A DNA stretch of 33,439 nt from an uncultured Dehalococcoidaceae bacterium (GCA_964623035.1 CAZUSN010000001.1:1-33439), one strand, 5' to 3'. Counted from the first letter of the stretch, positions 5,499 through 27,377 are shown. Made by a program: numbers and translations. Notes: generated from the sequence alone by a model not told the origin.

Positions 5499-5564
5499 TT
5501 AACTCCCCAAAGTCTCTAAGATGAAACTAAGGGGAATGTATGGAATGTATGGTAGGTAGGTGAA

Positions 5565-6773: not shown

Positions 6774-6794
6774 CTACCAATTGAGGAGAAGTCA

Positions 6795-7723: not shown

Positions 7724-7739
7724 CTTGTTGGGGAATGAA

Positions 7740-8594: not shown

Positions 8595-8615
8595 ACATAT
8601 TAGAGGAGCACGGTA

Positions 8616-9167: not shown

Positions 9168-9169
9168 TT

Positions 9170-10621: not shown

Positions 10622-10625
10622 GCTC

Positions 10626-11696
10626 ATGGATATTTTCCCCTTGATCCGTTTAGCGGCAAGCAAAGGTGCCTCGGATTTGCACCTGGTGGCTTACAGTCCA
10701 CCAATATTTCGTATTGATGGCTTAATTCAGCCCTTAGCTGAGATGCCACCACTAACACCCGAGGATATTGAGCAAGCCTTTCGTCAGATAACCTCGGAAC
10801 AGGAAAGGGCAGACTTCGAGCGTTGTCTGGAGCTTGACTTCGGCTATACCATACCTGATGTCAAACGGCTCCGCTGCAATGCCGCAAAGCAGCGCGGCAC
10901 CATCAGTCTCACCATTCGATTAATCCCACTGGTCATCCCCTCTATTGAAGAATTGGGCTTGCCCCCCGTATGCAAAGAGCTCGTGCTAAAACGTCGGGGG
11001 CTGGTGGTTGTTAGTGGGCCCAGTGGCTCTGGCAAATCAACCACCCTGGCTGCCATGATTAACCATCTGAACGCCTTAGAAAGCCGCAGTGTAATTACCA
11101 TTGAAGACCCTATCGAATATCTCTATACTAACAACCTGTGCACCATAACCCAGCGAGAACTGGGCAGTGACACCCGCTCCTTTGCTGAGGCACTGAGACA
11201 CGTCTTAAGACAAGACCCGGATGTGATTCTGGTTGGCGAGATGAGAGACACGGAGACCGCCGCAGCGGTACTTACCGTAGCCGAAACCGGACACCTAGTT
11301 TTAACCACCGGTCATGCCACCAGCGCCTCACAGGCAGTGGAACGGATAATAGACCTTTTCCCGCTTCACGAGCGCCATTTAGCCCAAACACGGCTGGCTT
11401 CCCTTCTCATGGGCATTCTGTGTCAGGCGCTTATCCCCAAGGCTGATGGCACAGGGCGGGTGCCTGCGGTTGAAATTATGTTAGCCAGTGCCGCCATCAG
11501 AAATAATATCAGAGAAGGCAAAATTTACCAGTTGCCCAACGCCATTATCACCCATGCTCGCGCCGGAATGATATTGTTTGACAATGCATTAATCAATCTT
11601 TACCGCAAGAATATTATCAACCAAGAAAGCCTGTTTGATTTCTGTAACGACCCTGATGAGGTAGCTAAGACTATCGGTAAAGTTGAAGTGCTGTAG
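10626..11696 (+). CDS. pilT: Twitching-motility retraction ATPase PilT
   Basis: Motifs GPSGSGKSTT, ITIEDPIEY, DPDVILVGEMRD, ETGHLVLTTGHA, plus the PilT-specific AIRNNIREGK. I preferred ATG 10626, which has a GGGAGAG SD, over the overlapping track start 10572. Confidence 0.92.
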   Translation: MDIFPLIRLAASKGASDLHLVAYSPPIFRIDGLIQPLAEMPPLTPEDIEQAFRQITSEQERADFERCLELDFGYTIPDVKRLRCNAAKQRGTISLTIRLIPLVIPSIEELGLPPVCKELVLKRRGLVVVSGPSGSGKSTTLAAMINHLNALESRSVITIEDPIEYLYTNNLCTITQRELGSDTRSFAEALRHVLRQDPDVILVGEMRDTETAAAVLTVAETGHLVLTTGHATSASQAVERIIDLFPLHERHLAQTRLASLLMGILCQALIPKADGTGRVPAVEIMLASAAIRNNIREGKIYQLPNAIITHARAGMILFDNALINLYRKNIINQESLFDFCNDPDEVAKTIGKVEVL

Positions 11697-11753
11697 CCTC
11701 AGCCAAATTTCCGTCCTTGACTAGCTAGCCAAAAACTCCCAAAATACAGCGTA

Positions 11754-12560
11754 ATGGAAGTTGTGTTAATCGTTGTCTTCGCTCTCCTCGGCACTGCGGT
11801 GGGCAGTTTCCTCAATGTTTGCATCGACCGTTTGCCGGCTGGCAAGTCGCTTGTCTACCCCCCATCCCACTGCGATTCCTGTCAACATCGCTTGTCGCCA
11901 AAAGACCTGATACCAGTTTTCAGCTATCTATGGCTGCGCCGGCGTTGTCGCTACTGTCAGGCACCTATCCCGCAACGACCATTCTGGGTAGAGCTCAGCA
12001 GCGGATTTCTTTTTGCCCTCACTTACTGGTACTATGGTTTGAGCAGCCAGCTTGTGGTCGCCGCTTTTTACCTTAGCCTGTTTCTTGTCCTCAGCGTCAT
12101 TGACCTGGAACACCAGCTTATCCTGAACAAAATAGTCTATCCGGCGGCGGCAGCAGCCCTGATTATTGACCTTTTCTTGCCCCCACCCGGGATTATTGAC
12201 TTTGCACTGCCTTCACCTTTAGCAGGAATCATCAATGGCGTTATCGGTGGCGCTATGGGATTCATCTTGTTTTTAGTGATTTATTTTGTTGTTCGTTTTA
12301 TCTATAAACAAGAGGGGATAGGGTTCGGAGATATTAAGTTAGCGGGCTTAATCGGGCTGGTTGCTGGCTCACGGCTGGTATTTGTCGCCTTGCTTATGGG
12401 AATAATTCTCGGTGGACTGGTAAGTATGGTTCTTCTTTTGCTCAGAATAAAGAAACGGAAGGAAGCCATCCCCTTCGGTCCCTTTTTGTCCTTGACCACT
12501 ATGGTTACCCTTTTCTTGGGAAACGACATTACTAACTGGTATCTGGGATTATTCTGGTAG
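11754..12560 (+). CDS. pilD: Prepilin peptidase / N-methyltransferase (A24 family)
   Basis: N-terminal CDSC...CRYC zinc region, catalytic Asp motifs VIDLEH and GFGDIKLAG, and a polytopic membrane profile. Confidence 0.9.
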   Translation: MEVVLIVVFALLGTAVGSFLNVCIDRLPAGKSLVYPPSHCDSCQHRLSPKDLIPVFSYLWLRRRCRYCQAPIPQRPFWVELSSGFLFALTYWYYGLSSQLVVAAFYLSLFLVLSVIDLEHQLILNKIVYPAAAAALIIDLFLPPPGIIDFALPSPLAGIINGVIGGAMGFILFLVIYFVVRFIYKQEGIGFGDIKLAGLIGLVAGSRLVFVALLMGIILGGLVSMVLLLLRIKKRKEAIPFGPFLSLTTMVTLFLGNDITNWYLGLFW

Positions 12561-13721: not shown

Positions 13722-15359
13722 TTGCGACAGGGCAGGGCGGAAGAGCTATGGCAGATGTGTTGCGGTTTTCTCAGCCTCTCTCTAGAGCAATTCATAGCTA
13801 TCCAGAATCGCTTGCTGCTGGAGCAAATAAGATTATTAAACCATTGCACCCTGGGCAAAAAGATAATGCAGGGGGCAAAACCGCAGACGGTGGAGGAGTT
13901 CCGTGAACTGGTGCCCTTAACCACCTACGCTGATTACTGTCCCGAACTTATAGAAAAGAGAGAAGCCCCCCTGCCTGCCGAGCCGGCTATGTGGGTGCAC
14001 ACCTCAGGCCGGTCTGGCGAATACCCCTGTAAATGGGTGCCGCTGACACGGGCATTCGTTCAGGAATTGAGCACCATAGGTTACGGCGTGGGCATTCTTT
14101 CCAGCTGTAAGGACTGGGGTGATACTTCCCAGCTTAATGGCTATCCCAAAATTGTCTATACGGTGGCCCCCAGACCTTATATGTCAGGTGCTTTAGCCAG
14201 CATGCTGGAAATGCAGACTCCGGCAGATTATTTACCTCCTTTAGATGAAGCTGAAAGTCTGCCCTTTGAAGAAAGAATAAAGCTTGGTTTCGAGCAAGCC
14301 CTGTCCCACGGGCTTGATTACTTCTTTGGTCTATCCATGGTGCTGGTCGTGGTCGGCAACAAGTTCAGCCAGCGCTCAAGTAAAATGGACATCCGTCCCC
14401 TGCTCCGCCAGCCCAGAGCTATGCTTCGCCTGCTTAAGGGACTGGCCAAGAGCAAAATAGCCCGGCGACCACTTTTGCCCAGAGACCTTTGGTCAATAAA
14501 GGGAATTATGAGCGGTGGACTTGATAGCTGGGTCTACCGGGAGAAAATAAAAGAGCTTTGGGGAAGATACCCACTGGATACTTACGCCGGCACCGAAGGT
14601 GGCATCATCGCTACACAGACCTGGGACTATGAAGGTATGACCTTTACCCCCAGTCTCAACTTCCTTGAGTTTATCCCGGAAAAGGAACATTTTAAGTGGC
14701 GATTGGACCCAGGCTACCGACCAAAAACGGTACTGCTCGATGAGGTGAAGCCCGGGGAGAACTACGAGATAGCTATCACCAACTTTCACGGCGGTGCCCT
14801 GATGAGATACCGACCGGGTGACATGGTCAGGATAACCTCACTGCGCAACGAGAAACTGGGCATTGATATTCCTCAAATGGTCTTTGAAAGACGGGCTGAT
14901 GACCTGCTTGATTTTGTTTTCATTCGGCTTACGGAAAAGACTATCTGGCAGGCAATCGAGAATACCGGCATTCCTTATGAGGACTGGACAGCACGCAAGA
15001 AACAAGGTGAACCGGTGTTGAGCCTCTGCCTTGAGCTTAAAGATGGCTACCAGGGCAATAAGGAAGGTGTTGCGGCAGCAGTTCGTGAACAGATAATCAA
15101 GTCTGATAGCAATAACAGAGATACTGAGTCCCTGATTCGTGATGAGTTTGCCAAGATGATCAACTTCAAGGTAGAGGTAAACCTGCTGCCGCAGGGCGCT
15201 TTCGCTAATTTTACCGCGCAAAGGCGAGCGGAAGGAGCTGATTTGGCTCACTTAAAGCCCGCTCACATTAACCCCACAGAGAAGGTGCTTTCATTGCTGC
15301 TAGCCAAGCCAGAGGCAGTTAAAGCCGGAGCTGAGCCTGAGAAAGTAACCGTCCGATAG
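13722..15359 (+). CDS. GH3-family / adenylate-forming (acyl-acid amido synthetase-like) protein
   Basis: VPLTTYADYCPELIE....WVHTSGRSGEYPCKWVPLT resembles the GH3 motif (vPl..Yed..p.i....TSGTT.g..K.iP.t). The ~545 aa length is typical. The start is uncertain: the strong SD GGGAGGTGAGGG at 13689-13700 is poorly spaced from TTG 13722. Confidence 0.55.
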   Translation: MRQGRAEELWQMCCGFLSLSLEQFIAIQNRLLLEQIRLLNHCTLGKKIMQGAKPQTVEEFRELVPLTTYADYCPELIEKREAPLPAEPAMWVHTSGRSGEYPCKWVPLTRAFVQELSTIGYGVGILSSCKDWGDTSQLNGYPKIVYTVAPRPYMSGALASMLEMQTPADYLPPLDEAESLPFEERIKLGFEQALSHGLDYFFGLSMVLVVVGNKFSQRSSKMDIRPLLRQPRAMLRLLKGLAKSKIARRPLLPRDLWSIKGIMSGGLDSWVYREKIKELWGRYPLDTYAGTEGGIIATQTWDYEGMTFTPSLNFLEFIPEKEHFKWRLDPGYRPKTVLLDEVKPGENYEIAITNFHGGALMRYRPGDMVRITSLRNEKLGIDIPQMVFERRADDLLDFVFIRLTEKTIWQAIENTGIPYEDWTARKKQGEPVLSLCLELKDGYQGNKEGVAAAVREQIIKSDSNNRDTESLIRDEFAKMINFKVEVNLLPQGAFANFTAQRRAEGADLAHLKPAHINPTEKVLSLLLAKPEAVKAGAEPEKVTVR

Positions 15360-15402
15360 TACTTTAGTCGCCCTCACTTTGGTCAATTTACTTTAGTTTT
15401 GC

Positions 15403-15431
15403 TTGACAGTTACCCCTTTTGAAGCAATAAT
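15403..15431 (+). promoter_or_regulatory. Candidate sigma70-like promoter (TTGACA-17 nt-AATAAT) ending 10 nt before ATG 15442
   Basis: TTGACA at 15403-15408 and AATAAT at 15426-15431. There is no SD before ATG 15442, so the mRNA may be near-leaderless. Confidence 0.4.
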
Positions 15432-15441
15432 TACCTCAGAT

Positions 15442-18400
15442 ATGAATATTTATGCTTTAATTCCTTTAGCTGCCGTAGTTTCTTATATCCCGCTGCTGCT
15501 TACCGCCATTAGCAGCCGGCCTTGGCAGACGCGTCATAAGCTCTTTATCCTGTTTTTAATCGCTGCCATGAGCTGGAGCCTCACTGATATCTTCTTACGC
15601 AGCAATGCTTTCCCGCAATATAATAACCTCTTGCTTAAATTCATCCTCATTACCTATACCTGGACGGCAGTGCAATTCCACTGCTTTGTTTCCTCTTTCT
15701 TTGCCCCGGGGCAGGGGCGATGGTTGCCACTTGCCTACGCTTCATTTGCCATGGTTATCATCCTGGTGCTGACGGGGCATGTCGCCGAAGGTGTTACCGT
15801 TGATGGTGATAAACTTTACCTCCATTACGGAGGAGGAATCATCTTTCTGGCGCTACCTCTACTGGTCTTGGCATGCAGAGTTACTTATGTTTTCGGAAAA
15901 CAGCTGAGGGTTTTAGATAATCCGGTGCTCCGCAATCAAATCTTTTCTCTATTGCTTGGTCTCTTCGTTCTGATTAGCTTTACTTTAGCTGCCCTCCTGC
16001 CCTGGGGAAGAGAATATGCGGTGACCCACTTTGGCAACATCATTAATGCCCTCATCCTCAGTTACGCCACTATCAGGCACCAGTTAGTTGACATTAGAAT
16101 CGTTTTGCGCAGTGGTTTATCCTGGGTGAGCTTAGGACTTATCGGTACCATCTGCTATGGGCTTTTGCTCATCATCATTGGCACAGTGCTCGACGTGAAA
16201 CTTGACTTCAGAGCTATCACCATAGCTACTTTAATTGCTATCTTAGTTGCCATATTAGTTTATAGACTGCGCAGCTATCTCTTCGTCACCATGGGCAAAG
16301 CCTTTCAAGGGCAAAGTTATCATTATCGTGCTAAGTTAGCCGAGTTTGCCAGTAAAATACATAATATCTTCAGCCTTAAGGAGCAGGGTGGAGAGTTGCT
16401 GTCGCTGGTTACCAAAGCCATTGGCTGTAAGCGCGCATACCTGATGTTCCTTGAAGCTGGTAGCCAAGATTTTACGGTCAAGTTTGTTGAACCCGGCGGG
16501 AAAGAAAATTCCCCGCCCAATCTAAGGTTGAGCGGGCAAAGCCCTATCGTGGAGTATCTCAGGCGAGAACGAAAACTGCTAACCAAGGAAAGTCTAGCCA
16601 TCCTACCCGAATTTCGCGGTTTATGGGAGGAGGAAAAAGGAGAGATTAAGTCAAATGAGATAGACCTGTTTGTGCCCTTAATTAGCCGCGATAGGTTAAT
16701 CGGCATTCTGGCACTGGATAAAAAGCAGCCCGGCAGGTATTCACTTGAAGATTTTTATCTGCTGGAGGATGTCACCAAGCAAGTGGCGGTAAGTATAGAG
16801 AAGGAATACCTCAGAGAGCGACTCAGAGAGCGTGAAGAGGAACTATCAGTTATCAACCGTTGCAGTGCCATTATAACCTCCAGCTTAGATATTCAAGGAA
16901 TATACAATAGCTTTATCGAAGAACTAAAGAAGGTGGTTGATTTTAGTTGGTCGTCTATTGTGCTTATTGAAAACAATTATCTTCGTTTTCTGGCGTTAGC
17001 CTCCGAGATAGGTTCTACCTGGAAGGTGGGAGACCGAATTTTGCTCAAAGGCACCGCTACGGAATGGATAATCGCCCATAAAGAGGCATTGGTTGAGCCT
17101 GACCTAACCAAGGGGAGTCGGTTTGTCACCGGGAAATACCATCTCAAGCAAGGAGTGCGCTCCATTGTTTACCTGCCGTTATTCGCTAAAGGTGAAGCTA
17201 TCGGTAGTTTCATTGTGGCTAGTCTTAAACCGAATGCTCATAATCAGAGACACCTGATGCTCTTGGAACAACTAGCTTCCCAGATTGCCATGTCTATTGA
17301 GAACTCTCGCCTTTATGCTGAAGCGGAGGAGAAAGCTCGCGTTGATGAACTTACCGGTTTGCTTAACCGCCGCTCCCTGGATGAGCTGATGGTCACTGAG
17401 ATTAGCCGTCATTCTCGCTATGGTGGGGTCTTCTCATTAATCATCTTTGACCTTGACTCTTTCAAAGCCTTTAATGACCACTATGGTCATCTGGCCGGCG
17501 ATAAGCTTCTCGGGAAAATCGGCAGCATTACAAGAAATACTATAAGAAGCGCGGACCAAGCCTTTCGCTATGGCGGTGATGAATTCGCCATTCTTCTACC
17601 CAGTACCCCAATTGATGCCGCCAACCAGGTGGCAGAGAGAATCCGCAAACAAATCGCGTCTAAGGTGAAAACAAGTCATATCCCGATTACCGCCAGTCTC
17701 GGGCTGGCGAGCTGGCCGGCCGATGGCATAGGTGCGCAGGAAGTCATTGCCGCCGCCGATGCCGCTCTCTATCATGCCAAGCGAGAGGGCGGCAACCGGA
17801 GTTACTGCGCCTCAGGAACTTTGGTGCCTCTAAATGAGACCGCAGTTAGCGCCAAGGATGTTGAAGACAGTGAAACATTGAATGCCATTTACGCGCTGGC
17901 AGCCACCGTTGATGCCAAAGACCATTACACCCACAGCCACTGGAAGAAAGTCAAAGATTATGCGGTGACGCTGGCAAAAGCTCTTAATCTGGAGACAGCA
18001 GAAATAGTCAAGCTGGAGACCTGTGCTTTGCTACACGATATCGGCAAGATTGGCATTAGTGAAAAGATACTCAATAAGCCGGGAAAGCTGACTGCGGAGG
18101 AGTGGGAAGTCATCAAAAGTCACCCTCAGGTAGGGGTAAACATTGTCAGTCATGCCAGTCAGCTAGCCTGTTGCCTGCCGGTTATTCTATATCATCATGA
18201 GCGATATGATGGGCAGGGCTACCCTAAAGGACTGAGGGGTGAAGAGATACCCCTGGAGGCTCGCGTCTTGGCCTTGGCTGATGCCTTTGCCGCCATGACT
18301 TCGGAACGCACTTACTCTAATGCCTTATCCTTTGAGGAAGCACTGGAAGAAATCAAGCAAGGTGCTGGTAAGCAGTTCGACCCCCAATTAGCTGAAGTCT

Positions 18401-18456
18401 TCTGCTCTGCTCTCACCACCCCCATCACACCCATTGAGGAAAAAGCAAGGAGGTGA
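15442..18456 (+). CDS. Membrane sensor with c-di-GMP turnover domains: 7TM (HisKA_7TM-like)-GAF-GAF-GGDEF-HD-GYP
   Basis: The ~290-aa polytopic N-terminus ends in YATIRHQLVDIRIVLR. Two GAF-like regions follow. The GGDEF domain carries RSAD (I-site) 5 residues before an intact GGDEF (RYGGDEFAIL). The HD-GYP domain carries LHDIGKI and HHERYDGQGYP. Confidence 0.85.
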   Translation: MNIYALIPLAAVVSYIPLLLTAISSRPWQTRHKLFILFLIAAMSWSLTDIFLRSNAFPQYNNLLLKFILITYTWTAVQFHCFVSSFFAPGQGRWLPLAYASFAMVIILVLTGHVAEGVTVDGDKLYLHYGGGIIFLALPLLVLACRVTYVFGKQLRVLDNPVLRNQIFSLLLGLFVLISFTLAALLPWGREYAVTHFGNIINALILSYATIRHQLVDIRIVLRSGLSWVSLGLIGTICYGLLLIIIGTVLDVKLDFRAITIATLIAILVAILVYRLRSYLFVTMGKAFQGQSYHYRAKLAEFASKIHNIFSLKEQGGELLSLVTKAIGCKRAYLMFLEAGSQDFTVKFVEPGGKENSPPNLRLSGQSPIVEYLRRERKLLTKESLAILPEFRGLWEEEKGEIKSNEIDLFVPLISRDRLIGILALDKKQPGRYSLEDFYLLEDVTKQVAVSIEKEYLRERLREREEELSVINRCSAIITSSLDIQGIYNSFIEELKKVVDFSWSSIVLIENNYLRFLALASEIGSTWKVGDRILLKGTATEWIIAHKEALVEPDLTKGSRFVTGKYHLKQGVRSIVYLPLFAKGEAIGSFIVASLKPNAHNQRHLMLLEQLASQIAMSIENSRLYAEAEEKARVDELTGLLNRRSLDELMVTEISRHSRYGGVFSLIIFDLDSFKAFNDHYGHLAGDKLLGKIGSITRNTIRSADQAFRYGGDEFAILLPSTPIDAANQVAERIRKQIASKVKTSHIPITASLGLASWPADGIGAQEVIAAADAALYHAKREGGNRSYCASGTLVPLNETAVSAKDVEDSETLNAIYALAATVDAKDHYTHSHWKKVKDYAVTLAKALNLETAEIVKLETCALLHDIGKIGISEKILNKPGKLTAEEWEVIKSHPQVGVNIVSHASQLACCLPVILYHHERYDGQGYPKGLRGEEIPLEARVLALADAFAAMTSERTYSNALSFEEALEEIKQGAGKQFDPQLAEVFCSALTTPITPIEEKARR

Positions 18457-18505
18457 CACTACTGAGATTGAACTCATTAAAACCAGATTCAAGAAGGTGA
18501 GAAAG

Positions 18506-19180
18506 ATGAACAAAACACAGGTCATTATCATTAGTCAGCAATCACTATTTCGGCAGGGAATAGAGCACGCGCTTTCCAAGCTTCGAGACATCAATGTTAG
18601 CGCTACGGCTGAGGTTAAGGATGAAGTCTTATCAATTATCGATAATTCGCCCCCTGACGTGGCCCTGGTGGATATTGATACCCCCACTGACGGCGGGTTG
18701 AAATTATCCCGTAAGATAAAGCAACGCCTGCCCACCATTGGCGTAGTCGTCCTTACTTCGAATCCAGACGACGCTCAGCTCTTTCAGGCACTTAAAGCTC
18801 AGGCAGTAGCTTATTTAAGCAAGGAAGTTAGCCCTGATGAATTGGTTAATACCATCAGGCGTGTTGCCCGTGGTGAACACCCAATAAACGAAAGTCTGAC
18901 TACCCGACCAAAACTGGCGGAACAAGTATTGCATCAGTTCCAGGAACTTTCCTGGCGGAGCGAAACCGAAGGTCTTATCGCGCCACTTACCCCCAGGGAG
19001 ATGGAAATCCTCAATTACATCGCTCAGGGCTTTCTCAATAAGCAGATTGCCGCTGAGCTTGACATTAGCGAACAGACCATAAAAAATCATGTTACTTCAA
19101 TTCTGCGCAAATTAAATGCTAACGCCCGTACTGAAGCAGTAGTTGTCGCTCTAAAGCAAGGCTTAATCTCTCTCAGTTAG
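18506..19180 (+). CDS. LuxR/NarL-family response regulator with atypical receiver (acidic pocket lost)
   Basis: The receiver aligns with the gene at 20469, but VVDDH is replaced by IISQQ. The Asp (LVDIDTP), Thr (VLTSN) and Lys (YLSKE) are kept. C-terminal LuxR HTH: LTPREMEILNYIAQGFLNKQIAAELDISEQTIKNHVTSILRKL. ATG 18506 has a GAAGGTGA SD. Confidence 0.8.
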   Translation: MNKTQVIIISQQSLFRQGIEHALSKLRDINVSATAEVKDEVLSIIDNSPPDVALVDIDTPTDGGLKLSRKIKQRLPTIGVVVLTSNPDDAQLFQALKAQAVAYLSKEVSPDELVNTIRRVARGEHPINESLTTRPKLAEQVLHQFQELSWRSETEGLIAPLTPREMEILNYIAQGFLNKQIAAELDISEQTIKNHVTSILRKLNANARTEAVVVALKQGLISLS

Positions 19181-19236
19181 AGGACACCACATCTATTCCA
19201 ATGTGCTATTTGTTTAGGCGACTGCTTCTTACTCTC

Positions 19237-19265
19237 TTGACATTCGTTATATAGGGAATTACTAT
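19237..19265 (+). promoter_or_regulatory. Sigma70-like promoter (TTGACA-17 nt-TACTAT) for the kinase/regulator pair
   Basis: TTGACA at 19237-19242, a 17-nt spacer, and TACTAT at 19260-19265, about 23 nt before ATG 19289. Confidence 0.55.
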
Positions 19266-19288
19266 CTAGTTAAGAAAGAAGATAGAAA

Positions 19289-20467
19289 ATGCAGACCAGA
19301 TACGAAAAAGAGGCCTATCAGTTCCTAGCTGTCTACCGCTTTTTGGCTTATGCTCTGTCGGTGATGTTCACCCAGGTTACGCCTCTTTTACTAAGTGCCC
19401 CCAAAATGCCACCTCTCCAACTTTATTTGGTCTTGAGTATACTCGGCATATACACCATCCTGAAAGTCTTCTCCCCCATTCAGTGGCGGGAGAGGGGTAC
19501 GATGACCTATCTTATCCTGTTCGGTGATTTTGCCCTTTGTATCCTGCTGGTTACTTATACCAACGGCTTGAACAGCAGTTTCCTGCTCTATTCCCTCACC
19601 CCGATTATGACCGCGGCTCTGCTCTTTGAGGAAAGGGTAGCGCTTTCCCTGGCAGCTTTTGCTTCTATTTCCCTCTCCGTTACTCACCTGACCTTGAGCC
19701 AGTTCACTACAATGTATGCCTCGATTATGCAGGGACATAATCTCACTCTGCTCATCGTTTACACCCTTTTCTCCTTTGTCGTTGCCATGGTGCCTTATCG
19801 CATTAACCTGAACATCCGGCGCCGCATTGAAAGAGAGGCAATTATTGAGGAGCGCCGCCGCATTGCTCGGGAGATACATGATGGTGTGGCACAGTCACTG
19901 AGCTATCTTAATATGAAAACAAAAACAGTAAGCGACCTGCTTTCTTCCAAGGACACGGTGCAGGCAGTCACCGAGCTTGGTGAGATTCGGCAGGTGGTAC
20001 AGGATACCTACGAGGATATCAGGGAATCCATTGACCAATTGAGCACCGAGATAAGGAGCCGCCCTATACTTCAGGCTATCGGAAGCTACGTCCAGGAATT
20101 TGGCAATAACAACGGTATCCGGGTTCAATTTGGTATCTCCAGACCTCTTACCAGGCTTTCTCCGGTTGCCGAGTTGCAATTGCTGCGCATCGTGCAAGAG
20201 GCACTGACCAATGTTAGAAGACACGCTATGGCCAGTGAAGTAGTCGTGAAGCTGGAAAATACCTCAGCGACAGTGGAGATGAGCGTCAAGGACAATGGGC
20301 GGGGTTTCAATCTCCTGGACCTGGACAAATCTCCTCCTGGGTATCACGGCTTGAGCATTATCAAAGAGAGAGCCGAGGGACTTGGCGGCAGTGTGAATAT
20401 AGTAACCGCACCAGGTAAAGGAACCGAGATACAGGTCAGCCTCCCGGCGGAGAAAGTGAGGTTGTGA
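19289..20467 (+). CDS. Sensor histidine kinase, HisKA_3 (NarX/LiaS/DegS-type), membrane-embedded sensor
   Basis: About six hydrophobic segments joined by short loops only. H-box IAREIHDGVAQSL, N-box EALTNVRRHA, G1 VKDNGRGF and G2 region GLSIIKERAEGLGG. Confidence 0.85.
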   Translation: MQTRYEKEAYQFLAVYRFLAYALSVMFTQVTPLLLSAPKMPPLQLYLVLSILGIYTILKVFSPIQWRERGTMTYLILFGDFALCILLVTYTNGLNSSFLLYSLTPIMTAALLFEERVALSLAAFASISLSVTHLTLSQFTTMYASIMQGHNLTLLIVYTLFSFVVAMVPYRINLNIRRRIEREAIIEERRRIAREIHDGVAQSLSYLNMKTKTVSDLLSSKDTVQAVTELGEIRQVVQDTYEDIRESIDQLSTEIRSRPILQAIGSYVQEFGNNNGIRVQFGISRPLTRLSPVAELQLLRIVQEALTNVRRHAMASEVVVKLENTSATVEMSVKDNGRGFNLLDLDKSPPGYHGLSIIKERAEGLGGSVNIVTAPGKGTEIQVSLPAEKVRL

Positions 20468-20468
20468 G

Positions 20469-21137
20469 ATGGACACCCTCAAAGTACTTGTGGTGGATGA
20501 CCATGCCTTATTTCGCCGTGGCATCGCCACGGTGTTAGCCAACCAGAAAGACTTAAAGATAGTGGGAGAAGCCGCTGACGGATTGGAGGCAATAGAAAAG
20601 GCGGAAAAACTTGCCCCCGATGTCATCCTGATGGACCTGAACATGCCTCGTTGCAGCGGGCTGGAAGCCACTCAGGCACTCCATACCAAAATGCCTCAAG
20701 TAAATATCCTTGTCCTGACCGTCTCTGACAATGAGGCTGACCTTTTCGCCGCCATAAAATTTGGGGCTACTGGCTACATACTGAAGAACACCGAGCCAGA
20801 GGAGTTGATTCAGGCTATCTTTCACCTTGCTCAGGGTGGCGTAATCATCTCCCCGGTTATGGCAACAAAGCTACTTTCGGAATTCAAAGACTTGGAAACC
20901 GGGGCGGAGAAGAGACCGGTTAAAGAAGAGGCTAGCTTAAGTCCGCGAGAAGAAGAAGTATTACGCTTGGTGGCGCAGGGAGCCACCAACAAGGAAATCG
21001 CTGATTCATTGTTCATTTCCGAAAACACGGTGAAGACGCACCTGCGTAACATTATGGATAAGTTACACCTGGCAAACCGCAGTCAGGCAGCAGCTTATGC
21101 CGTGAAAAGGGGACTTTTGCCCAATCATCAGCCATAA
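20469..21137 (+). CDS. NarL/FixJ-family response regulator (canonical receiver + LuxR HTH)
   Basis: Receiver residues VVDDH, LMDLNMP, LTVSD and ILKNT are present. HTH: LSPREEEVLRLVAQGATNKEIADSLFISENTVKTHLRNIMDKL. The ATG lies 1 nt after the kinase TGA, suggesting translational coupling. Confidence 0.9.
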   Translation: MDTLKVLVVDDHALFRRGIATVLANQKDLKIVGEAADGLEAIEKAEKLAPDVILMDLNMPRCSGLEATQALHTKMPQVNILVLTVSDNEADLFAAIKFGATGYILKNTEPEELIQAIFHLAQGGVIISPVMATKLLSEFKDLETGAEKRPVKEEASLSPREEEVLRLVAQGATNKEIADSLFISENTVKTHLRNIMDKLHLANRSQAAAYAVKRGLLPNHQP

Positions 21138-21229
21138 GCAAGCTAAAATCATCCCCGAAACAGGGCTCTATCGCCCGAAAGGATTAGTTCTTATTTCCTA
21201 TTAGAAATCACCTCTTTGTAGGATTGTGA

Positions 21230-21258
21230 TTGACCCTACGATACTTTATGATTAAGAT
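21230..21258 (+). promoter_or_regulatory. Candidate sigma70-like promoter for the pilin genes (TTGACC-17 nt-TAAGAT)
   Basis: TTGACC at 21230-21235 and TAAGAT at 21253-21258. The right arm of an AATCAC-N14-GTGATT inverted repeat (21206-21231) overlaps the -35. Confidence 0.45.
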
Positions 21259-21318
21259 GCTTGCCTAAGTTAACACTGGCTAATCTAAGGCAAAAAAATT
21301 GTGGAAGGAGGTGAAAAA

Positions 21319-21801
21319 ATGAGATTGCCAAAGAGAGGAGAGAAAGGTTTCACCCTCATCGAGCTGCTGATTGTCGTCGCTATCCTGGGCGTGCTGGCAG
21401 CTGTGGTCATCCCCAATGTGGGAAGGTTCATCGGACGGGGTGAGGAAGAGGCGGCACAAACCGAGTTGAGCAACATCCAGACTGCGGTGATTGCCATGAT
21501 GACCGATAACCAGTTGGACTCTCTACCGACTGGCTTTGTCGGGACTCCGGCTACCGCTACCGCGAACATGAGCCTGTTCCCCCATCCTACGGCAGCTTGT
21601 GGAACCGTCAAGCTATTAGACCCAGATGGAAATTCCTACACCGCCAGTGATAAGGACGGATATATACTCTACGGGCATGACGTCACTGCCGACAACAGCA
21701 CGACACTCCTGTACAACTATGTCGCCTCGGAAATGTGCAAGGGTACCTACTATGTTGATTCGTTAGGCACGGTAACCCAACAGACCACCGGGTATGAATA
21801 A
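21319..21801 (+). CDS. pilA: Type IV major pilin, copy 1 (prepilin with class III signal)
   Basis: MRLPKRGEKG|FTLIELLIVVAILGVLAAVVIPNV is a canonical cleavage/methylation motif with Glu5. The mature protein is 150 aa with one Cys pair (C94, C140). GGAGGTGA SD. Confidence 0.9.
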   Translation: MRLPKRGEKGFTLIELLIVVAILGVLAAVVIPNVGRFIGRGEEEAAQTELSNIQTAVIAMMTDNQLDSLPTGFVGTPATATANMSLFPHPTAACGTVKLLDPDGNSYTASDKDGYILYGHDVTADNSTTLLYNYVASEMCKGTYYVDSLGTVTQQTTGYE

Positions 21802-21849
21802 TCTGCCTAAGATTAGCTAAGGAAAATAAGGTGAGGAGGAGGTGAAAAA

Positions 21850-22332
21850 ATGAAATTGCCGAAGAGAGGAGAGAAGGGGTTCACCCTGATTGAGCTTTTG
21901 ATTGTCGTCGCCATCCTGGGCGTGCTGGCAGCCGTGGTCATCCCCAACGTGGGAAGGTTTATCGGACGGGGTGAGGAGGAGGCAGCCGAAACTGAGTACA
22001 GCAACATCCAGACTGCGGTGGTCGCTATGATGGTTGATAACCAGTTGAGCACATTGCCGACTGGCTTTGTCGGGACTCCGGCTACCGCTACCGCGAACAT
22101 GAGCCTGTTCCCCCATCCTACGGCAGCTTGCGGAACTGTCAAGCTAACAGACCCAAATGGAGATGACTACACCGCCAGTGATAAAGACGGATATGTACTC
22201 TACGGGCATGATGTCACTGCCGACAACAGCACAGCCGCTCTAGTCAACTATGTCGCCTCGGAAATGTGCAAGGGTACCTACTATGTTGATGCCACAGGAA
22301 CGGTAACTCAACAGACTACCGGCTACGAGTAA
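21850..22332 (+). CDS. pilA: Type IV major pilin, copy 2 (paralogue of copy 1)
   Basis: MKLPKRGEKG|FTLIELLIVVAILGVLAAVVIPNV. It has the same length as copy 1, and substitutions cluster in a few head-domain patches. Confidence 0.9.
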   Translation: MKLPKRGEKGFTLIELLIVVAILGVLAAVVIPNVGRFIGRGEEEAAETEYSNIQTAVVAMMVDNQLSTLPTGFVGTPATATANMSLFPHPTAACGTVKLTDPNGDDYTASDKDGYVLYGHDVTADNSTAALVNYVASEMCKGTYYVDATGTVTQQTTGYE

Positions 22333-22446
22333 TTCGCCAGAAAAGATGGCGGGGAGTTATCTATATAAGCATTATCTGATATAACAAAGAGGCTATGGGA
22401 GGCGGGGTAAGGGAGAGAAGGATGATATGGGAGGGGTGGAGGTCAA

Positions 22447-22491
22447 GGAGAGATGCCCGAAAATTAGACAGAACGGGCGTCTCTCCTTTTT
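22447..22491 (+). terminator. Rho-independent terminator for the pilin genes
   Basis: 13-bp stem GGAGAGATGCCCG (22447-22459) / CGGGCGTCTCTCC (22474-22486) with one U-G pair and a 14-nt loop, followed by TTTTT. Confidence 0.75.
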
Positions 22492-22531
22492 CATCCCACT
22501 ATAGCTCAGGAATTGTTCCGGTTATGCCCAA

Positions 22532-22549
22532 ATGAGCTAAAGAGCTCAT
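22532..22549 (-). terminator. Weak hairpin downstream of the minus-strand PilM/N gene
   Basis: ATGAGCT-AAAG-AGCTCAT is a perfect 7-bp stem 19 nt past the stop at 22568. Only TT follows on the minus strand, so it is a weak candidate. Confidence 0.25.
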
Positions 22550-22567
22550 CAATTATTTTCTGCTGAC

Positions 22568-24112
22568 TTAACCACCTTCCGCAGCCAGAGGTTCCAGTGT
22601 AATAATACCACTGGTGGTATAAGGATAGCCCTCAGGCGGAGGAATAGGTGATAAAAATCGACCAATTTCCTCCAGAGCCTTTAAATATTCTCTAAAAGTA
22701 AGGTAATCCTCTGCCTTGCAGGTAACTTCAATGCTAGTGCCCCTATGCCTAATCGAATTCACCGTAACGCCAAGTTTCTCAGCCTCTCCAAAAATAACTT
22801 CTACGTCCTTCTCGAAACTGACCTCTCTATCAACAATCTTCTGATACTCAGCCACGGCTTTTTGCAGTGGTTCTCGCTTTTGTATCTCCCGCTTTTTCAA
22901 TTCCAGTTGACTATCTAGAGTCTTAAATTTTGCTTCCAAAATAGCCGTTTTTGACATAGCCTCGCTAGCTACATCAAATAGCGGAAATAGCAGGGCAAAA
23001 CCAGCAATGAGAACAATAATGGCATATACCTGCCTCGATGTTGGTCTCCAAGGGCGATAAGTCCCAGGCAGAAGATTAAGGTCCAGAGGTAAAATACCAT
23101 CCTGAACTTTATTCTTAGTTATTGCGGATTTTCGCAGGGCAAGCCCGATGTTAACCACGTATTGGGAAACAGGCAAATAAGCCGGGTATTTTACCGAAAG
23201 CACCAGCGGCTCAACGTGATAGCCCGATGTGGCATTCAGCCTCTCTACCAAGTCTGAGTTCATAGCCAACTGTCCGGTGACAACAAGAGGAGTTGCCGGG
23301 TCCAAGGGAGTCTCCAGATGATGCGAATTATAAAATTCTACGTTTGCTTCTAACATGGTCGTTAGATATTCGGCAGTTTCTTCAAGGGAAAGCTGGTTCG
23401 GGTTCCAGGCAATAGTTCGTATTACTTCCGGTACATTGTTCACCACGACAATAAGGTCAATGCTGGGGGAATCAATATTCAGGATAAGAGCCTGCTTCTT
23501 GTCGACCGCCCGAACTAACGCCATGGACCTGAGCTCCACCACGTAGGGGTCAATACCGGCTGCTTTTAGCGCGTGCACCTCTTCATCAATCACCTCTCGC
23601 GAGACACCCACGGCAAGGAAAAGCCGCTCATTCTCTCTATTTGAAATTGTTTGCCAAGCTAAATATCGCCTATGTTCCGGTAAAGGCATTGTCTCATTGG
23701 CAACCTCCAAAATCGCCTCCCCGGCGGTTGGTGCTGGAGGAAGAGCCGACTCCGATAGCACGCGACTTACCGTATAGAGCCCGCTGAGACTGGCAACGGC
23801 TTTCTTCGCCTTTATGCCACTTGAAGCCATGAGCTGCCTGACTGCCTTACCTAAAGCGGGAAGACCGGAAGCAGGTTCTTCCTCAGCAGGTTTGCTGGTT
23901 TCGAATGAGGCTTCAGCCCATTTTTTGACCACATTGCCTTTCATCTCAAGGAGCCTGATGCTTTTGCTGTCAATATCAAGTGTTATCACCGGCCTACCCA
24001 GCCACTCCTCCAGTTTCCCAGTTATGCTCCTGACGATAGCACGCAGGGCACTGTTTAAATCCATGGATAAGACGCCGCTTTTGGTCCGGGCTTTTCCTTT
24101 TTTCTCAGCCAA
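22568..24112 (-). CDS. PilM-PilN fusion protein, second copy (paralogue of 9170-10621)
   Basis: ITLDIDSKSIRLLEMKGNVVKKWAE parallels VTLYIDDTSIRMLLTQGKRIKKWAD. It has the TM helix VYAIIVLIAGFALLFPLF, a coiled coil, and a PilN-like C-domain (IEVTCKAEDYLTFREYLKALEEIGRF). TTG start with GGGGAAGGT SD. Confidence 0.7.
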   Translation of the reverse strand: MAEKKGKARTKSGVLSMDLNSALRAIVRSITGKLEEWLGRPVITLDIDSKSIRLLEMKGNVVKKWAEASFETSKPAEEEPASGLPALGKAVRQLMASSGIKAKKAVASLSGLYTVSRVLSESALPPAPTAGEAILEVANETMPLPEHRRYLAWQTISNRENERLFLAVGVSREVIDEEVHALKAAGIDPYVVELRSMALVRAVDKKQALILNIDSPSIDLIVVVNNVPEVIRTIAWNPNQLSLEETAEYLTTMLEANVEFYNSHHLETPLDPATPLVVTGQLAMNSDLVERLNATSGYHVEPLVLSVKYPAYLPVSQYVVNIGLALRKSAITKNKVQDGILPLDLNLLPGTYRPWRPTSRQVYAIIVLIAGFALLFPLFDVASEAMSKTAILEAKFKTLDSQLELKKREIQKREPLQKAVAEYQKIVDREVSFEKDVEVIFGEAEKLGVTVNSIRHRGTSIEVTCKAEDYLTFREYLKALEEIGRFLSPIPPPEGYPYTTSGIITLEPLAAEGG

Positions 24113-24144
24113 GTTTACCTTCCCCTTTATTCACGTTACCAAAG

Positions 24145-25110
24145 TTATTTGCTCTCTTCCCCCTCTTCCACCGGTTTGGCATAAAGGTCAATATCCATAT
24201 TGGCTACAGTTTCAACACGGAACTCTTCCGAGCCAGAATATTCGGTCGCCTTGGCAATATCAGGTTTATCAAACTGGCGCACTGTGCCATCTGCTTCACA
24301 GGTATAGTAATACCGGGTGGTATGCCTGATGATATAACTAGTGGTCTTAAAATCAGTGGTGTTGTCCGCAAGGATTCGGTCATGCTGGAAGAGCAAATAC
24401 CCCGCCTTGGGGCTTTCTGTTCCCGTATAGCCTTTGTCAGCAGCCGTGGTGGTGACGTCAGGAAAGGCTGCCATGTCGTTCGCCGCCACGCCACCCTTGT
24501 AATTTATCGGGTGGGGTATTTTCACCAGACCATTATCAGCCATCATAGCCAGCACCGCTGCTATCACCTCGCGAAATTCGGCTCTCCTTTCCCCCTCTTC
24601 ACCTGGATACCTAATCTCAACCTGGCTGACATCTACCCGCCTCAGCACCATGGTCTCCTTCGTCTTTCCTGAGTCCAGGTCAGCAAGAAAAGACATCACG
24701 CTATCATAATCGCCCTGCACCTTGACCTGGTTAAAAGCCTGCACCATATAGGTTCTCTCACCGCTTTGCCGTTTTTCTGGTGCCGGTGGCGGGGGAATTC
24801 TAAACTTGTCTCCGGTCGGGTCAACATTAATTCCGCTTTGCTCAGCTATGTCGACAATAATCTCCAGGGCTTCAGTTAATGTCACTGGTTCGAGGGCTTG
24901 GTTTACTTCATCATATTGTGCCTGTAACTTTTTAATATCAGGTAAGGGCTTACTGACAATGCCAATGGTCTTACTTATTTGCTCCTCGATGTCCTTCTGC
25001 TTTGGTCCCTGTTGAATATAGATGATGCCTAAACCGGCATATAGAATCAAACAAATCCCGAGGACGACGATAAATCCCATCCGCTGAATTCTGGACAATA
25101 AACTCCCCAT
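24145..25110 (-). CDS. PilO-like protein fused to a pilin-head-like C-terminal domain (no class III signal)
   Basis: The N-terminal half has a TM helix, a coiled coil, and IIVDIAEQSGINV...VQGDYDSVMSFLADLD, which parallels the PilO-like gene at 8616. Residues 170-280 align to the pilin heads, for example GEEGERRAEFREVIAAVLAMMADNGLVKIP vs GEEEAAQTELSNIQTAVIAMMTDNQLDSLP. Confidence 0.6.
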   Translation of the reverse strand: MGSLLSRIQRMGFIVVLGICLILYAGLGIIYIQQGPKQKDIEEQISKTIGIVSKPLPDIKKLQAQYDEVNQALEPVTLTEALEIIVDIAEQSGINVDPTGDKFRIPPPPAPEKRQSGERTYMVQAFNQVKVQGDYDSVMSFLADLDSGKTKETMVLRRVDVSQVEIRYPGEEGERRAEFREVIAAVLAMMADNGLVKIPHPINYKGGVAANDMAAFPDVTTTAADKGYTGTESPKAGYLLFQHDRILADNTTDFKTTSYIIRHTTRYYYTCEADGTVRQFDKPDIAKATEYSGSEEFRVETVANMDIDLYAKPVEEGEESK

Positions 25111-25180
25111 CTTATCTCTCTTGCCTCTATCTACCTAGCGCAGAATCAATAATAAATTTAGCACTTCAATGATTTCCCGT

Positions 25181-25555
25181 CTACCTCCACCTTTCCCGAA
25201 GCGCTTTCTGCACCTTTTCTTCTATCGTTTCTTCTATTGTTTTCCGCTCTGCCCTTTCCTGCTCAATGAACTCGCGCGTCAAGCGGGACATTTCTTCATC
25301 ATAAAAGAGCTGGTAAAGCTGCCGCCCCCGTCTCCACCCCATGAGCCAGACCATGGATAGACCAAAGATGGCTATTGGAGCTATAATTTCCAGTCCCACA
25401 TTCTGAAAGAGCAGGATAATAATGAGAATCAATACCACGAACAGAAATACCGCCACATCAAGGTCCCAGCGGGCAATTCTGGCTCTTTCCTTGGCTCTCC
25501 TGACCGCCATTGGTTTGATTTCCGTCTGTGCCTTTTCCATATTGCTTTCTGCCAA
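25181..25555 (-). CDS. Small membrane protein, two TM helices with charged helical tails, unknown function
   Basis: VAVFLFVVLILIIILLF and IIAPIAIFGLSMVWLMGW are flanked by Lys/Arg/Glu-rich segments. TTG start 5 nt after AAGGAGG. It is the first gene of the minus-strand module. Confidence 0.5.
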   Translation of the reverse strand: MAESNMEKAQTEIKPMAVRRAKERARIARWDLDVAVFLFVVLILIIILLFQNVGLEIIAPIAIFGLSMVWLMGWRRGRQLYQLFYDEEMSRLTREFIEQERAERKTIEETIEEKVQKALRERWR

Positions 25556-25668
25556 GGTTACCTCCTTGCTCGTTCACCCCCCAATACAACTTTCTACTAT
25601 ATAATAAACATAATAATAACGAAATACAATGAATGAGATTGTTTATTGATTGACCTCACCCCCTTTAT

Positions 25669-25998
25669 CCCCCTCTTCCTTAAAAGGAGAGGGGGAAAGA
25701 AATGGAAGAGGAGCTAGCGCCCCTCTTAGACACTCCCCATATCATCAAACTCAGAGCAAGAAGAGTTAAAGAGGGGCAAATCCCCTCTCTTACTTTACTC
25801 CCCTTCTGACAGAAACGAAACCCCTCCTAAAAATCTCCCCCCTTATCTTTTTCAGGAGCGTCTAAGAGAGGGCTATGCCTCAGAAGTGTTTATAGGGTGC
25901 TCAAGGGGGCAAAGCCCCAGATGTGTTTATCGGGCGTTTAAGAGGGACGAAGTCCCTCTCTTACTCATACTCCCCCTTCCCTTACCAAGGGAAGGGGG
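25669..25998. repeat. Cluster of G/C-rich hairpin repeats (GAGGG-loop-CCCTC type) in a divergent intergenic region
   Basis: Hairpins lie at 25669-25695, about 25707-25728, 25770-25788, about 25906-25918, 25941-25959 and 25972-25998. Copies at 25765-25806 and 25936-25980 share GTTWAAGAGGGR-loop-YCCCTCTCTTACT..ACTCCCC. A tandem unit of about 38 bp lies at 25881-25918 / 25919-25956. Confidence 0.7.
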
Positions 25999-26031
25999 TT
26001 AGGGGGATAGGTTGGTAAATAATCTCTACCT

Positions 26032-26060
26032 TTGACACTCCTATAAGCCGATGTTATCAT
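26032..26060 (+). promoter_or_regulatory. Sigma70-like promoter (TTGACA-17 nt-TATCAT) for the HlyC/CorC gene
   Basis: TTGACA at 26032-26037, a 17-nt spacer, and TATCAT at 26055-26060, 21 nt before ATG 26082. AAGGGAG SD. Confidence 0.55.
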
Positions 26061-26081
26061 TATGGTAAGGGAGCAGTCACG

Positions 26082-27377
26082 ATGTCTAAATTTGAATTAT
26101 ACCTATTGCTGCTTATCATTTGTTTTTTATTTTCGGCCTTCTTTTCCGGCTCGGAAACAGCCTTTATTTCTTTGCAGAGGCTAAGAGTTGAGCACCTCGT
26201 TGCCAACAACGTGAAAGGCGCCAGGCGGGTCGCCAGGATGATTGCACACCCGGACGAGTTCCTCTCCACTGTTTCGCTGGGCACCAACCTTGTTAACACG
26301 GCTGCGGCTGCTCTGGCGACTGCTTTAGCCATCTCCTTCTGGGGTGAGCAGGGTATCCTCATTGCTACCATAGGGATAACCGTTATTCTCCTGATATTTG
26401 CTGATGTTACCCCCAAGACCATTGCCGCTCAACATTCAGAAAGGTTATCATTAACTTTTGTCCGCCCTCTGGAATTTATCTCCTGGCTGTTCACCCCCTT
26501 CGTCATCGCCCTGAGCTGGATAGCCTCGGGATTTACCAAACTGGTCGGCGGGACCTCAGCCCCCAGGTCTCTAGCCAGTCCGGAGGAAATCCGCACCATG
26601 ATATCGGTAGGACAAAAAGAGGGAACGGTGGAAGAGCTAGAAGCCGAGATGCTCCACAAGGTCTTCGAGTTTGGCGACCGCCCTATCCGTGAGGTCATGG
26701 TGCCCCGCCCGGAAGTGGTCGCCATCGAGAAAAGCTCCCGAATCTCCGAATTCCTCGCCCTCTATGCCAAATTCCCCCTCTCTCGTTTCCCCGTCTACCA
26801 GGAGAATATGGACAACGTCGTCGGCATTCTGTCGATAAAGGATGTGCTCATGGCTCAGGCTAAAGGCACCATCAGTAACCAGAGCACCATTGATGACCTC
26901 ATCCGCCCTGCCTACTTCGCCCCGGAAACTAAACGCATTAGCGAACTCTTCTTTGAGATGCAGGAGAGAAACTATCCCATATGCGTAGTCGTCGATGAGT
27001 ATGGCGGCACCGCCGGCATCGTCAGCCTTGACCGCTTAGTCGGGGAAATCGTCGGTGAGGTCGGCGATGAGTTAGCCCGGGTGGAAAAGGACTTCGAAAT
27101 TATCAATGAATACACCTTCCAGATGGACGGCAGCATGCGTATTGATGAAGCCAATGAAGAGATGGGACTAGAACTACCACAGGGTGATTACGAGACGGTC
27201 GCCGGCTTTGTCCTCCACCTTCTAGGACATATCCCCAAGCCCAATGAACAATTGCGCTATAAGGAACTGAAGCTGGTGATAACCGAAATGCGCGGACGTA
27301 AAATTGAGAAAATCCTGCTCACCAAGGAAAAGGCGGGAAATGCCAGCAAAGAAAATTCCGCTGAGGCTAAAAGGTGA
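26082..27377 (+). CDS. HlyC/CorC-family transporter (CNNM/DUF21 - CBS pair - CorC_HlyC)
   Basis: N-terminal 4-TM region with FFSGSETAF. The CBS pair region includes VREVMVPRPEVVAI and GILSIKDV. C-terminal transporter-associated domain (GDYETVAGFVLHLLGHIP). Confidence 0.9.
   Translation: MSKFELYLLLLIICFLFSAFFSGSETAFISLQRLRVEHLVANNVKGARRVARMIAHPDEFLSTVSLGTNLVNTAAAALATALAISFWGEQGILIATIGITVILLIFADVTPKTIAAQHSERLSLTFVRPLEFISWLFTPFVIALSWIASGFTKLVGGTSAPRSLASPEEIRTMISVGQKEGTVEELEAEMLHKVFEFGDRPIREVMVPRPEVVAIEKSSRISEFLALYAKFPLSRFPVYQENMDNVVGILSIKDVLMAQAKGTISNQSTIDDLIRPAYFAPETKRISELFFEMQERNYPICVVVDEYGGTAGIVSLDRLVGEIVGEVGDELARVEKDFEIINEYTFQMDGSMRIDEANEEMGLELPQGDYETVAGFVLHLLGHIPKPNEQLRYKELKLVITEMRGRKIEKILLTKEKAGNASKENSAEAKR

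Follow-up and report, generated by a model that had tools for sequence, protein, structure and literature searches.

A PilO-like protein of Dehalococcoidia carrying a homologue of the pilin globular head within its fold

How a homologue of the pilin globular head comes to reside in a protein that otherwise resembles a component of the pilus assembly platform, and what it may do there, are the questions raised by a gene in the window, by which we mean the whole stretch of 33,439 nucleotides from an uncultured Dehalococcoidaceae bacterium analyzed here. PilO is a protein of the type IVa pilus alignment subcomplex (Pfam PF04350), and its equivalent in the type II secretion system is GspM. The first-pass annotation had described the gene product as a PilO-like bitopic platform protein bearing a signal-less homologue of the pilin globular domain, and this overall description is supported by our analysis, which also found the arrangement to be conserved. 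The open reading frame exists as claimed, and its 321-aa product and an insert-less paralogue from the motor cluster of the window comprise the following features:

24145-25110 (-): whole gene, encoding a PilO-like protein with an inserted pilin-head-family module, 321 aa (open reading frame, homologues and syntenic loci)
25018-25077 (-): N-terminal transmembrane helix, residues ~12-31 (hydrophobic FIVVLGICLILYAGLGIIY within the modelled helix 4-33)
24895-25011 (-): helical linker or coiled-coil region, residues ~34-72 (AF2/DSSP helices 35-52 and 59-72, low pLDDT of 51-65)
24610-24885 (-): PilO-like core part 1 (alpha-beta-beta-alpha-beta), residues 76-167 (AF2 H78-91, E112-116, E119-133, H135-147, E154-167; pLDDT 76-90)
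24223-24609 (-): inserted pilin-head-family module, residues 168-296, 129 aa (BLASTP to both pilins, independent HMMs, AF2)
24175-24222 (-): final PilO-like core beta strand, residues 297-312, beyond the insert (AF2 E297-311, pLDDT ~89; kept in homologues)
8616-9167 (+): PilO-like paralogue without an insert, 183 aa, encoded in the motor cluster (translation; layout by eye)

The target protein is probably bitopic with an N-in topology. In the whole-protein AlphaFold2 model (pLDDT 71.6 overall and 76-90 in the core) the transmembrane helix (H4-33) is followed by the linker (H35-72), the elements H78-91, E112-116, E119-133, H135-147 and E154-167, the module, and finally E297-311 (AF2/DSSP), with strand 297-311 (pLDDT ~89) modelled as the successor of strand 154-167. 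As modelled, the protein is an alpha-beta-beta-alpha-beta-beta core with the module placed in its last beta-hairpin. The pilin-like part had initially been taken for the C-terminal half of the protein; it is instead a 129-aa insertion (residues 168-296), after which residues 297-312 belong to the core again. In an alignment of 30 homologues the tail FRVETVANMDIDLYAKP, which makes up the last ~20 residues, is kept after the module irrespective of whether one or two module copies are present. Natural relatives that lack the insert (L037 7533-8348 and P0235) have both core strands joined directly, the former reading '...VSISEVEVDGKIETRATMDVDIYTKSY' at the strand junction, and the translated window paralogue 8616-9167 has a tight turn, 'PESKEQPSA', at the position of the insert. 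Both L037 7533-8348 (+), whose gene sits outside any pilus operon, and P0235 are single lipoprotein-like polypeptides in which a PilN-like domain is joined directly to the insert-less PilO-like core, and P0235 carries a DUF6612 domain and a pilin-head module upstream of this PilN-like/PilO-like part.

Membership of the core in the PilO family at the level of sequence was rejected. Pfam yielded zero matches to the target at E <= 0.1, PilO PF04350 and T2SSM included, PilO or GspM families were absent from the Pfam matches of 30 family members at E <= 10, NCBIfam gave no match to the target at E <= 1, and PDB sequence profile searches carried out with and without the insert found no PilO. At the level of the model, the target displays the PilO/GspM traits of a bitopic topology, a helical linker and two alpha-beta-beta motifs (AF2/DSSP), and it is encoded with pilM/pilN, joined in most related loci by pilB/pilC. 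The top PDB match of the full model in Foldseek was Pseudomonas aeruginosa PilO 2rjz, a weak match (probability 0.94, E 0.036; TM 0.43 normalised on the target, rmsd 8.6 A) with an alignment interrupted by the insert. Since no PilO/GspM HMM matches, the PilO-likeness of the target rests on topology, modelled fold and gene context. The parallel drawn earlier with the PilO-like gene at 8616-9167 holds for the layout, since both proteins have in common a transmembrane helix, a coiled coil and an alpha-beta-beta-alpha-beta-beta order as judged by eye, but it does not extend to the sequence outside the transmembrane region, where no significant similarity was found (BLASTP E 0.007; hhalign probability 72%, transmembrane segment only).

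The relationship of the insert to pilins was assessed with the tandem pair encoded downstream of the target on the opposite strand:

21319-21801 (+): type IV pilin 1, with GFTLIE signal (N_methyl E 1.8e-09, PDB pilin alpha1 matches, BLASTP to the target)
21850-22332 (+): type IV pilin 2, in tandem with its paralogue pilin 1 (N_methyl E 3.2e-09, BLASTP to the target)

BLASTP aligned target residues 170-279 with residues 41-154 of pilin 21319-21801 (E 2e-12, 32% identity) and also matched the target to pilin 21850-22332 (E 2e-10); the ungapped block with 13 of 30 identical residues that had been counted by hand between target and pilin proved right on recount. A comparison of alignment A2 with pilin 1 by hhalign was discarded as circular because A2 includes the window pilins, and independent HMMs were used instead. 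An HMM built from 176 PilO-type inserts matched only three of the 79 window ORFs, namely the target and the two pilins (E 1.2e-19 and 5.4e-18), and an HMM built from 14 bona fide pilin heads of other organisms matched target residues 170-291 (E 2.4e-33).

The alignment starts at pilin residue 41, approximately mature residue 31, within the stretch of residues 5-65 by which the window pilins align with alpha1 of type IVa pilins of solved structure, among them PilA of Geobacter and of Myxococcus. As this start lies inside alpha1, the module corresponds to alpha1-C and the remainder of the head. Core strand 154-167 is followed immediately by alpha1-C (GEEGERRAEF...), with which the insert opens, and no hydrophobic alpha1-N polymerisation helix precedes it. 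As claimed earlier, class III signal, alpha1-N and the pilin Cys pair are lacking: the motif G|F(T/S)LxE is absent from the target, which has no N_methyl match, both window pilins matching this family at E ~1e-09, and a single Cys is conserved. Lacking the G|FTLIE signal and alpha1-N, the insert cannot be processed by PilD or polymerise.

When the module was modelled alone (24211-24615 (-), 45-sequence alignment, AF2), a pLDDT of 93.9 and a pTM of 0.87 were obtained for a structure consisting of a 22-residue N-terminal helix (H6-27), a long loop and four strands (E78-82, 85-92, 99-106 and 112-115). The order of these elements, an alpha1-C-like helix and a four-stranded antiparallel meander, fits that of a type IV pilin head. 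Despite the pLDDT of 93.9, a Foldseek search of the isolated module against the PDB revealed no neighbour, pilins included (best E 4.0), and a PDB sequence profile search with the module found no solved pilin; the pilin fold of the module therefore rests on homology and on the order of secondary structure elements. A confident model without a Foldseek neighbour raises the possibility that the head of this pilin family differs structurally from that of solved pilins.

The first-pass annotation had regarded the insert as a copy of the neighbouring pilin, which overstated the relationship, as a ranking of pilins from 19 loci by similarity puts those of the window at the 6th percentile. The insert shares 28-32% identity with the window pilins and 50% with pilin P0136. 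In a comparison of the scores of the insert against own and foreign pilins across the 19 loci, the mean percentile was 0.59 (0.06 for the window), and co-variation of the insert with the adjacent pilin showed no cis excess. In a rough NJ tree the PilO inserts, which have their own signature YYYTCEADGTVRQF, formed essentially one clade and the window pilins fell in a distant clade; a few pilins were placed near the base of the PilO-insert clade, for example P0136 and P0141, which share the motif 'YYYTCEADGT[IV]RQF'. A recent copy of the neighbouring pilin, or gene conversion with it, was rejected on the basis of this low identity, the absence of a cis excess and the distant position in the tree. 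The same three observations point to an ancient capture of a pilin head, which is an old, separately conserved paralogue and not a copy of a local gene. An exception was found at locus L031, where the adjacent pilin (5738 (-)) is of the insert's (3103 (+)) own subtype and scores 171 bits, compared with 44-69 bits for the own-locus pilins of the other 18 loci; this similarity suggests either an ancestral donor type or a later exchange.

The search of relatives for the same combination of transmembrane helix, PilO-like core and pilin head, which had also been suggested, was successful. At least 391 protein clusters, which come from JGI, ENA, NCBI and Logan assemblies, match the target at E <= 1e-3. 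Among the best 120 of these, each covers at least 83% of the query, and those that carry a label are hypothetical proteins from Dehalococcoidia, Dehalococcoidales or subsurface metagenomes, none with a Pfam domain. A scan of one genome per species yielded 34 MAG loci with the full architecture, the record titles of which name Dehalococcoidia, Dehalococcoidales, Dehalococcoidaceae, Chloroflexota/Chloroflexi and, in one case, an 'uncultured bacterium' MAG. In the short-form family the mean identity is 66% in the insert versus 52-57% in the core, many of the invariant positions in the alignment of 30 homologues are located in the insert, and the insert is, as judged from these sequences, maintained by purifying selection. 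Long-form homologues of 440-469 aa (for example P0002, P0007, P0009, P0012, P0022 and P0092) have two tandem modules in the same hairpin, and since copy 1 and copy 2 cluster apart in a distance tree, a single old duplication is suggested. One homologue of 603 aa, P0149, has an insertion of ~230 aa, consisting of short repeats of the 'EGD.L..EG..L' type, within the alpha-beta loop of the module.

The genomic surroundings connect the target to a type IV pilus machine. Its neighbours in the window are:

25181-25555 (-): upstream operon partner, 124 aa, comprising a hydrophobic hairpin and, at the C-terminus, a charged helix (directly upstream of the target in 33/34 loci)
22568-24112 (-): downstream operon partner, a PilM-TM-PilN-like fusion (GspL-like), 514 aa (Pfam and NCBIfam, sub-threshold)
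19289-21137 (+): histidine kinase of the PilS kind with a LuxR-type response regulator, preceding the pilins (6TM_PilS, HisKA_3, HATPase_c; Response_reg and GerE)

Intergenic gaps of 70 and 32 nt suggest that 25181-25555, the target and 22568-24112 form one operon, with which the tandem pilin pair is convergent; a promoter/terminator scan of 22200-26200 revealed nothing decisive. The downstream partner matches Pfam PilM_2 with E 8.6e-06 (25.3 bits, below the curated cut-off of 27 bits) and NCBIfam pilM with E 5.7e-13 (48.6 bits, below the cut-off of 133 bits), and it is a paralogue of a second fusion at 9170-10621 (27% identity, E 3e-52). The upstream partner, for which Pfam and NCBIfam gave only weak sub-threshold matches, may be an unrecognised machine component. 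The motor cluster at 3969-12560 contains PilB, PilC, two minor pilins, ORF 7668-8594, the PilO-like gene at 8616, the second PilMN fusion, PilT and PilD. The plain PilO-like (8616) and PilMN (9170) pair follows the minor pilins there and is accompanied by PilT and PilD, which implies that the genome encodes PilO/PilMN twice, the insert being present in one set and missing from the other.

In related loci the usual order is pilB-pilC-(minor pilins)-small TM protein-target homologue-pilMN with the pilins on the opposite strand, and no PilO-like gene other than the target homologue was seen in the operon. Of the 34 loci, 33 keep the order of small TM gene, target homologue and pilMN, and in 26 there is pilB, pilC or both upstream, whether or not accompanied by minor pilins. 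One or two opposite-strand pilins were found beside pilMN in 22 of the 34, and all 22 share the head family of the insert. The kinase/regulator pair also adjoins the pilins in related loci, where, if the contig continues, the genes beyond the pilins encode a response regulator, a histidine kinase, another response regulator and then a GGDEF/HD protein. Compared with ~30 related loci, the block from the small TM gene to the GGDEF/HD gene (13722-25555) is inverted in the window, where the target adjoins the PilMN fusion at 22568-24112 and pilB/pilC lie 18 kb away. Within the searched flanks of the pilus loci no secretin or PilP/PilQ gene was seen; a monoderm envelope has been reported for Chloroflexota.

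Outside pilins and PilO-like proteins the module is widespread. A search with the insert gave 191 representative clusters at E <= 1e-3, and the best 150 of these comprised 25 PilO-type proteins, 16 typical pilins and 109 others, many of them fragments. Among the matches listed, ~48 of the 109 have a signal-like or lipoprotein-like N-terminus with the module further downstream, often at the C-terminus. The module is combined with LRR repeats (P0153), DUF6612/LolA-like domains (P0184, P0235), DUF3352 and CARDB (P0221) or DUF4785, and in P0182, a Ser/Thr kinase, two extracellular modules occur together with PD40 repeats. Without alpha1-N, it is found in one to several copies in lipoproteins and large secreted proteins, P0124 and P0218 among them, and no Pfam model covers it. 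Two proteins, P0249 and the 280-aa product of L035 7725-8567 (+), are fusions of a TIR domain with the module; in the latter the TIR domain (TIR_2 E 3.5e-13) is N-terminal, and there is neither a signal peptide nor a transmembrane helix. The L035 fusion could represent a sensor-effector arrangement with the pilin head as the sensing part. The polar residues N28, D53, H78, D79 and Q114 of the module are (near-)invariant in all of these contexts, and the target retains all of them. The presence of the module in at least 109 clusters that are neither typical pilins nor PilO-like suggests that it acts as a general mobile domain and not as a dedicated mimic of the local subunit. Of the pilin-head mimic proposed by the first-pass annotation, the signal-less pilin-head homologue stands; specific mimicry of pilins is one option among several, as lipoproteins, LRR proteins, a kinase and TIR proteins have the same module, and docking, priming, a cap or a decoy are no more than candidate roles.

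We conclude that the target is a platform protein of the PilO type into which a new domain has been inserted, a combination for which we found no earlier description, and that the pilin-head module constitutes an uncatalogued mobile domain family. Pfam, NCBIfam and PDB sequences contained no model or relative for either the whole protein or the module, and our search of the available literature on PilO combined with a pilin domain, or on Dehalococcoidia pili, did not turn up any PilO/GspM-type protein equipped with a pilin head, in line with a remark in the first reading of the gene. The target resembles PilO and GspM in its bitopic topology, helical linker, modelled alpha-beta-beta-alpha-beta-beta core and best, if weak, PDB fold match (PilO 2rjz), and also in its location beside pilM/pilN, fused here as in GspL and mostly in one operon with pilB and pilC in related loci. 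It differs from them in lacking a match at the HMM level, in the 129-aa domain in its last hairpin (two copies in some homologues), in a gene order in which the pilO-like gene precedes pilMN, and in that no pilP/pilQ partner was seen in the loci. With type IV pilins (N_methyl PF07963) the insert shares homology over the whole globular part of Dehalococcoidia pilins (alpha1-C, alpha-beta loop and four-stranded sheet), including the residues invariant throughout the family; in contrast to them it has no G|FTLIE signal or alpha1-N, one conserved Cys instead of a Cys pair, and no Foldseek similarity to solved pilins.

To our knowledge, it is still unclear how subunits are handed over from the PilN-PilO platform to the growing fibre, and little is understood of monoderm machines that lack a secretin. 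The target, in which a pilin head is grafted into a PilO-type protein, represents a natural experiment in which a subunit-like domain is fixed at a defined site of the machine, so that the geometry of the contact becomes testable. Moreover, the pilin head, stripped of the polymerisation helix, is encountered as a mobile domain in TIR proteins, lipoproteins and a kinase, and the uncatalogued family that it forms is confined to a lineage of environmental importance, most of which is uncultured.

Related arrangements have been described in other organisms. PilO homologues of Litorilinea aerophila (Chloroflexota) have a C-terminal LysM domain, for which the authors propose an anchoring role (PMC12488501). 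Like the target, these are Chloroflexota PilO-like proteins that gained an extracytoplasmic domain; however, theirs is a C-terminal peptidoglycan-binding LysM, whereas that of the target is a pilin head inside the fold (PMC12488501). CpaL of the Caulobacter Tad system, an example of the minor pilins or pilin-like proteins that have acquired further domains, combines a pilin-like domain with a vWA domain (PMC13170226). Unlike in such modular proteins, the host protein here is a platform component, and its pilin part is without the polymerisation helix.

With respect to function, we tentatively favour the reading that the gene encodes the PilO/GspM equivalent of a monoderm Dehalococcoidales type IVa pilus machine, with the insert as a built-in docking or collar element at the pilus base. 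According to this proposal, the PilO-like core and the PilN portion of the PilMN fusion would form a pair around the PilC platform. The pilin-head module would thereby be kept at the base of the pilus, immediately outside the membrane, and would there contact pilin heads or the growing fibre. Such contact would be made through features conserved across the family and not through a surface matched to the local pilin. The return of the core strand after the module, the insert-less relatives, the top Foldseek match to PilO 2rjz, the homology to pilin heads and the conservation of the insert argue for this reading, for which the LysM-bearing PilO homologues of Litorilinea (PMC12488501) offer a precedent, and the link to the pilus follows from the gene order in 33/34 loci, the presence of pilB/pilC in 26 and the common head family in 22/22 pilin-bearing loci. 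It is weakened by the missing co-variation between insert and neighbouring pilin (percentile 0.59 on average, 0.06 for the window), by zero PilO HMM matches in 30 members together with the weak Foldseek match (E 0.036, TM 0.43), and by an insert model without a neighbour among solved structures (best E 4.0). Numerous unrelated extracytoplasmic proteins, and even fusions with TIR domains, contain the module as well, and a generic role may apply.

Such a generic role would be that of an extracytoplasmic binding or scaffolding domain of Dehalococcoidia, which in the target would anchor the PilN-PilO cage, or lengthen it, towards the S-layer or envelope without recognising pilins, and which in pilins would give adhesion. 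We regard this, the main alternative, as possible, if rather unlikely. The C-terminal position of the module in many lipoproteins and secreted proteins and its extracellular position in the receptor kinase would fit, as would the tolerance for one or two copies and for the ~230-aa repeat insertion in P0149, the lack of co-variation with the local pilin, and the LysM-bearing PilO homologues in Litorilinea (PMC12488501); N28, D53, H78, D79 and Q114, conserved throughout, would be consistent with a shared ligand or metal site. On the other hand, no ligand is known, the module is clearly derived from pilin heads or common to them and has its start exactly at alpha1-C, the pilins encoded downstream of pilMN belong to this head family in all 22 loci that show one there, and TIR fusions without a signal peptide are unsuited to a purely envelope-binding domain.

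A broader interpretation, which we consider doubtful, is that the Dehalococcoidia pilin head is a portable module for recognising pilins or pili. In PilO it would then provide a site for docking or priming of subunits that replaces minor-pilin primers or PilP/PilQ, and elsewhere it would tether surface lipoproteins, the receptor kinase and immune-type TIR proteins to pili or to ligands that bind pilins. It is very unlikely that the anchored pilin head instead acts as a lure for phages that bind pili, or for other ligands of pilins, or keeps the machine informed of the pilin pool: the TIR fusions (L035 7725-8567 and P0249) and the Ser/Thr kinase P0182 suggest an ability to sense, but the position in a structural hairpin, the fixed place in the operon and the strong conservation are more easily reconciled with a structural part of the machine than with a rapidly evolving decoy, and no defence genes lie beside the target in the window. 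That the gene is an assembly chimera, a mis-joined pair of PilO and pilin genes or a decaying non-functional remnant is an idea that stems solely from the odd architecture, has nothing found in its favour and is extremely improbable, the chimera being rejected by the recurrence of the collinear architecture in at least 391 clusters and 34 species-level MAG loci and by the conserved core strand after the insert, and decay being at odds with an insert that is better conserved than the core and was modelled in isolation with a pLDDT of 93.9.

Two further observations concern the neighbouring genes. The region 15403-19180 (+) encodes a 1017-aa GAF-GAF-GGDEF-HD(-GYP-like) protein and a LuxR-type response regulator that are kept beside the pilin regulators in related loci, and this conservation hints at a control of piliation by c-di-GMP. 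The ORF that follows the minor pilins varies greatly in size, from 308 aa in the window (7668-8594 (+)) up to 1424 aa in L023; neither it nor its counterparts (L023 3056, L024 3984 and L006 6154) have a family match, and they are possibly tip-associated or adhesin-like.
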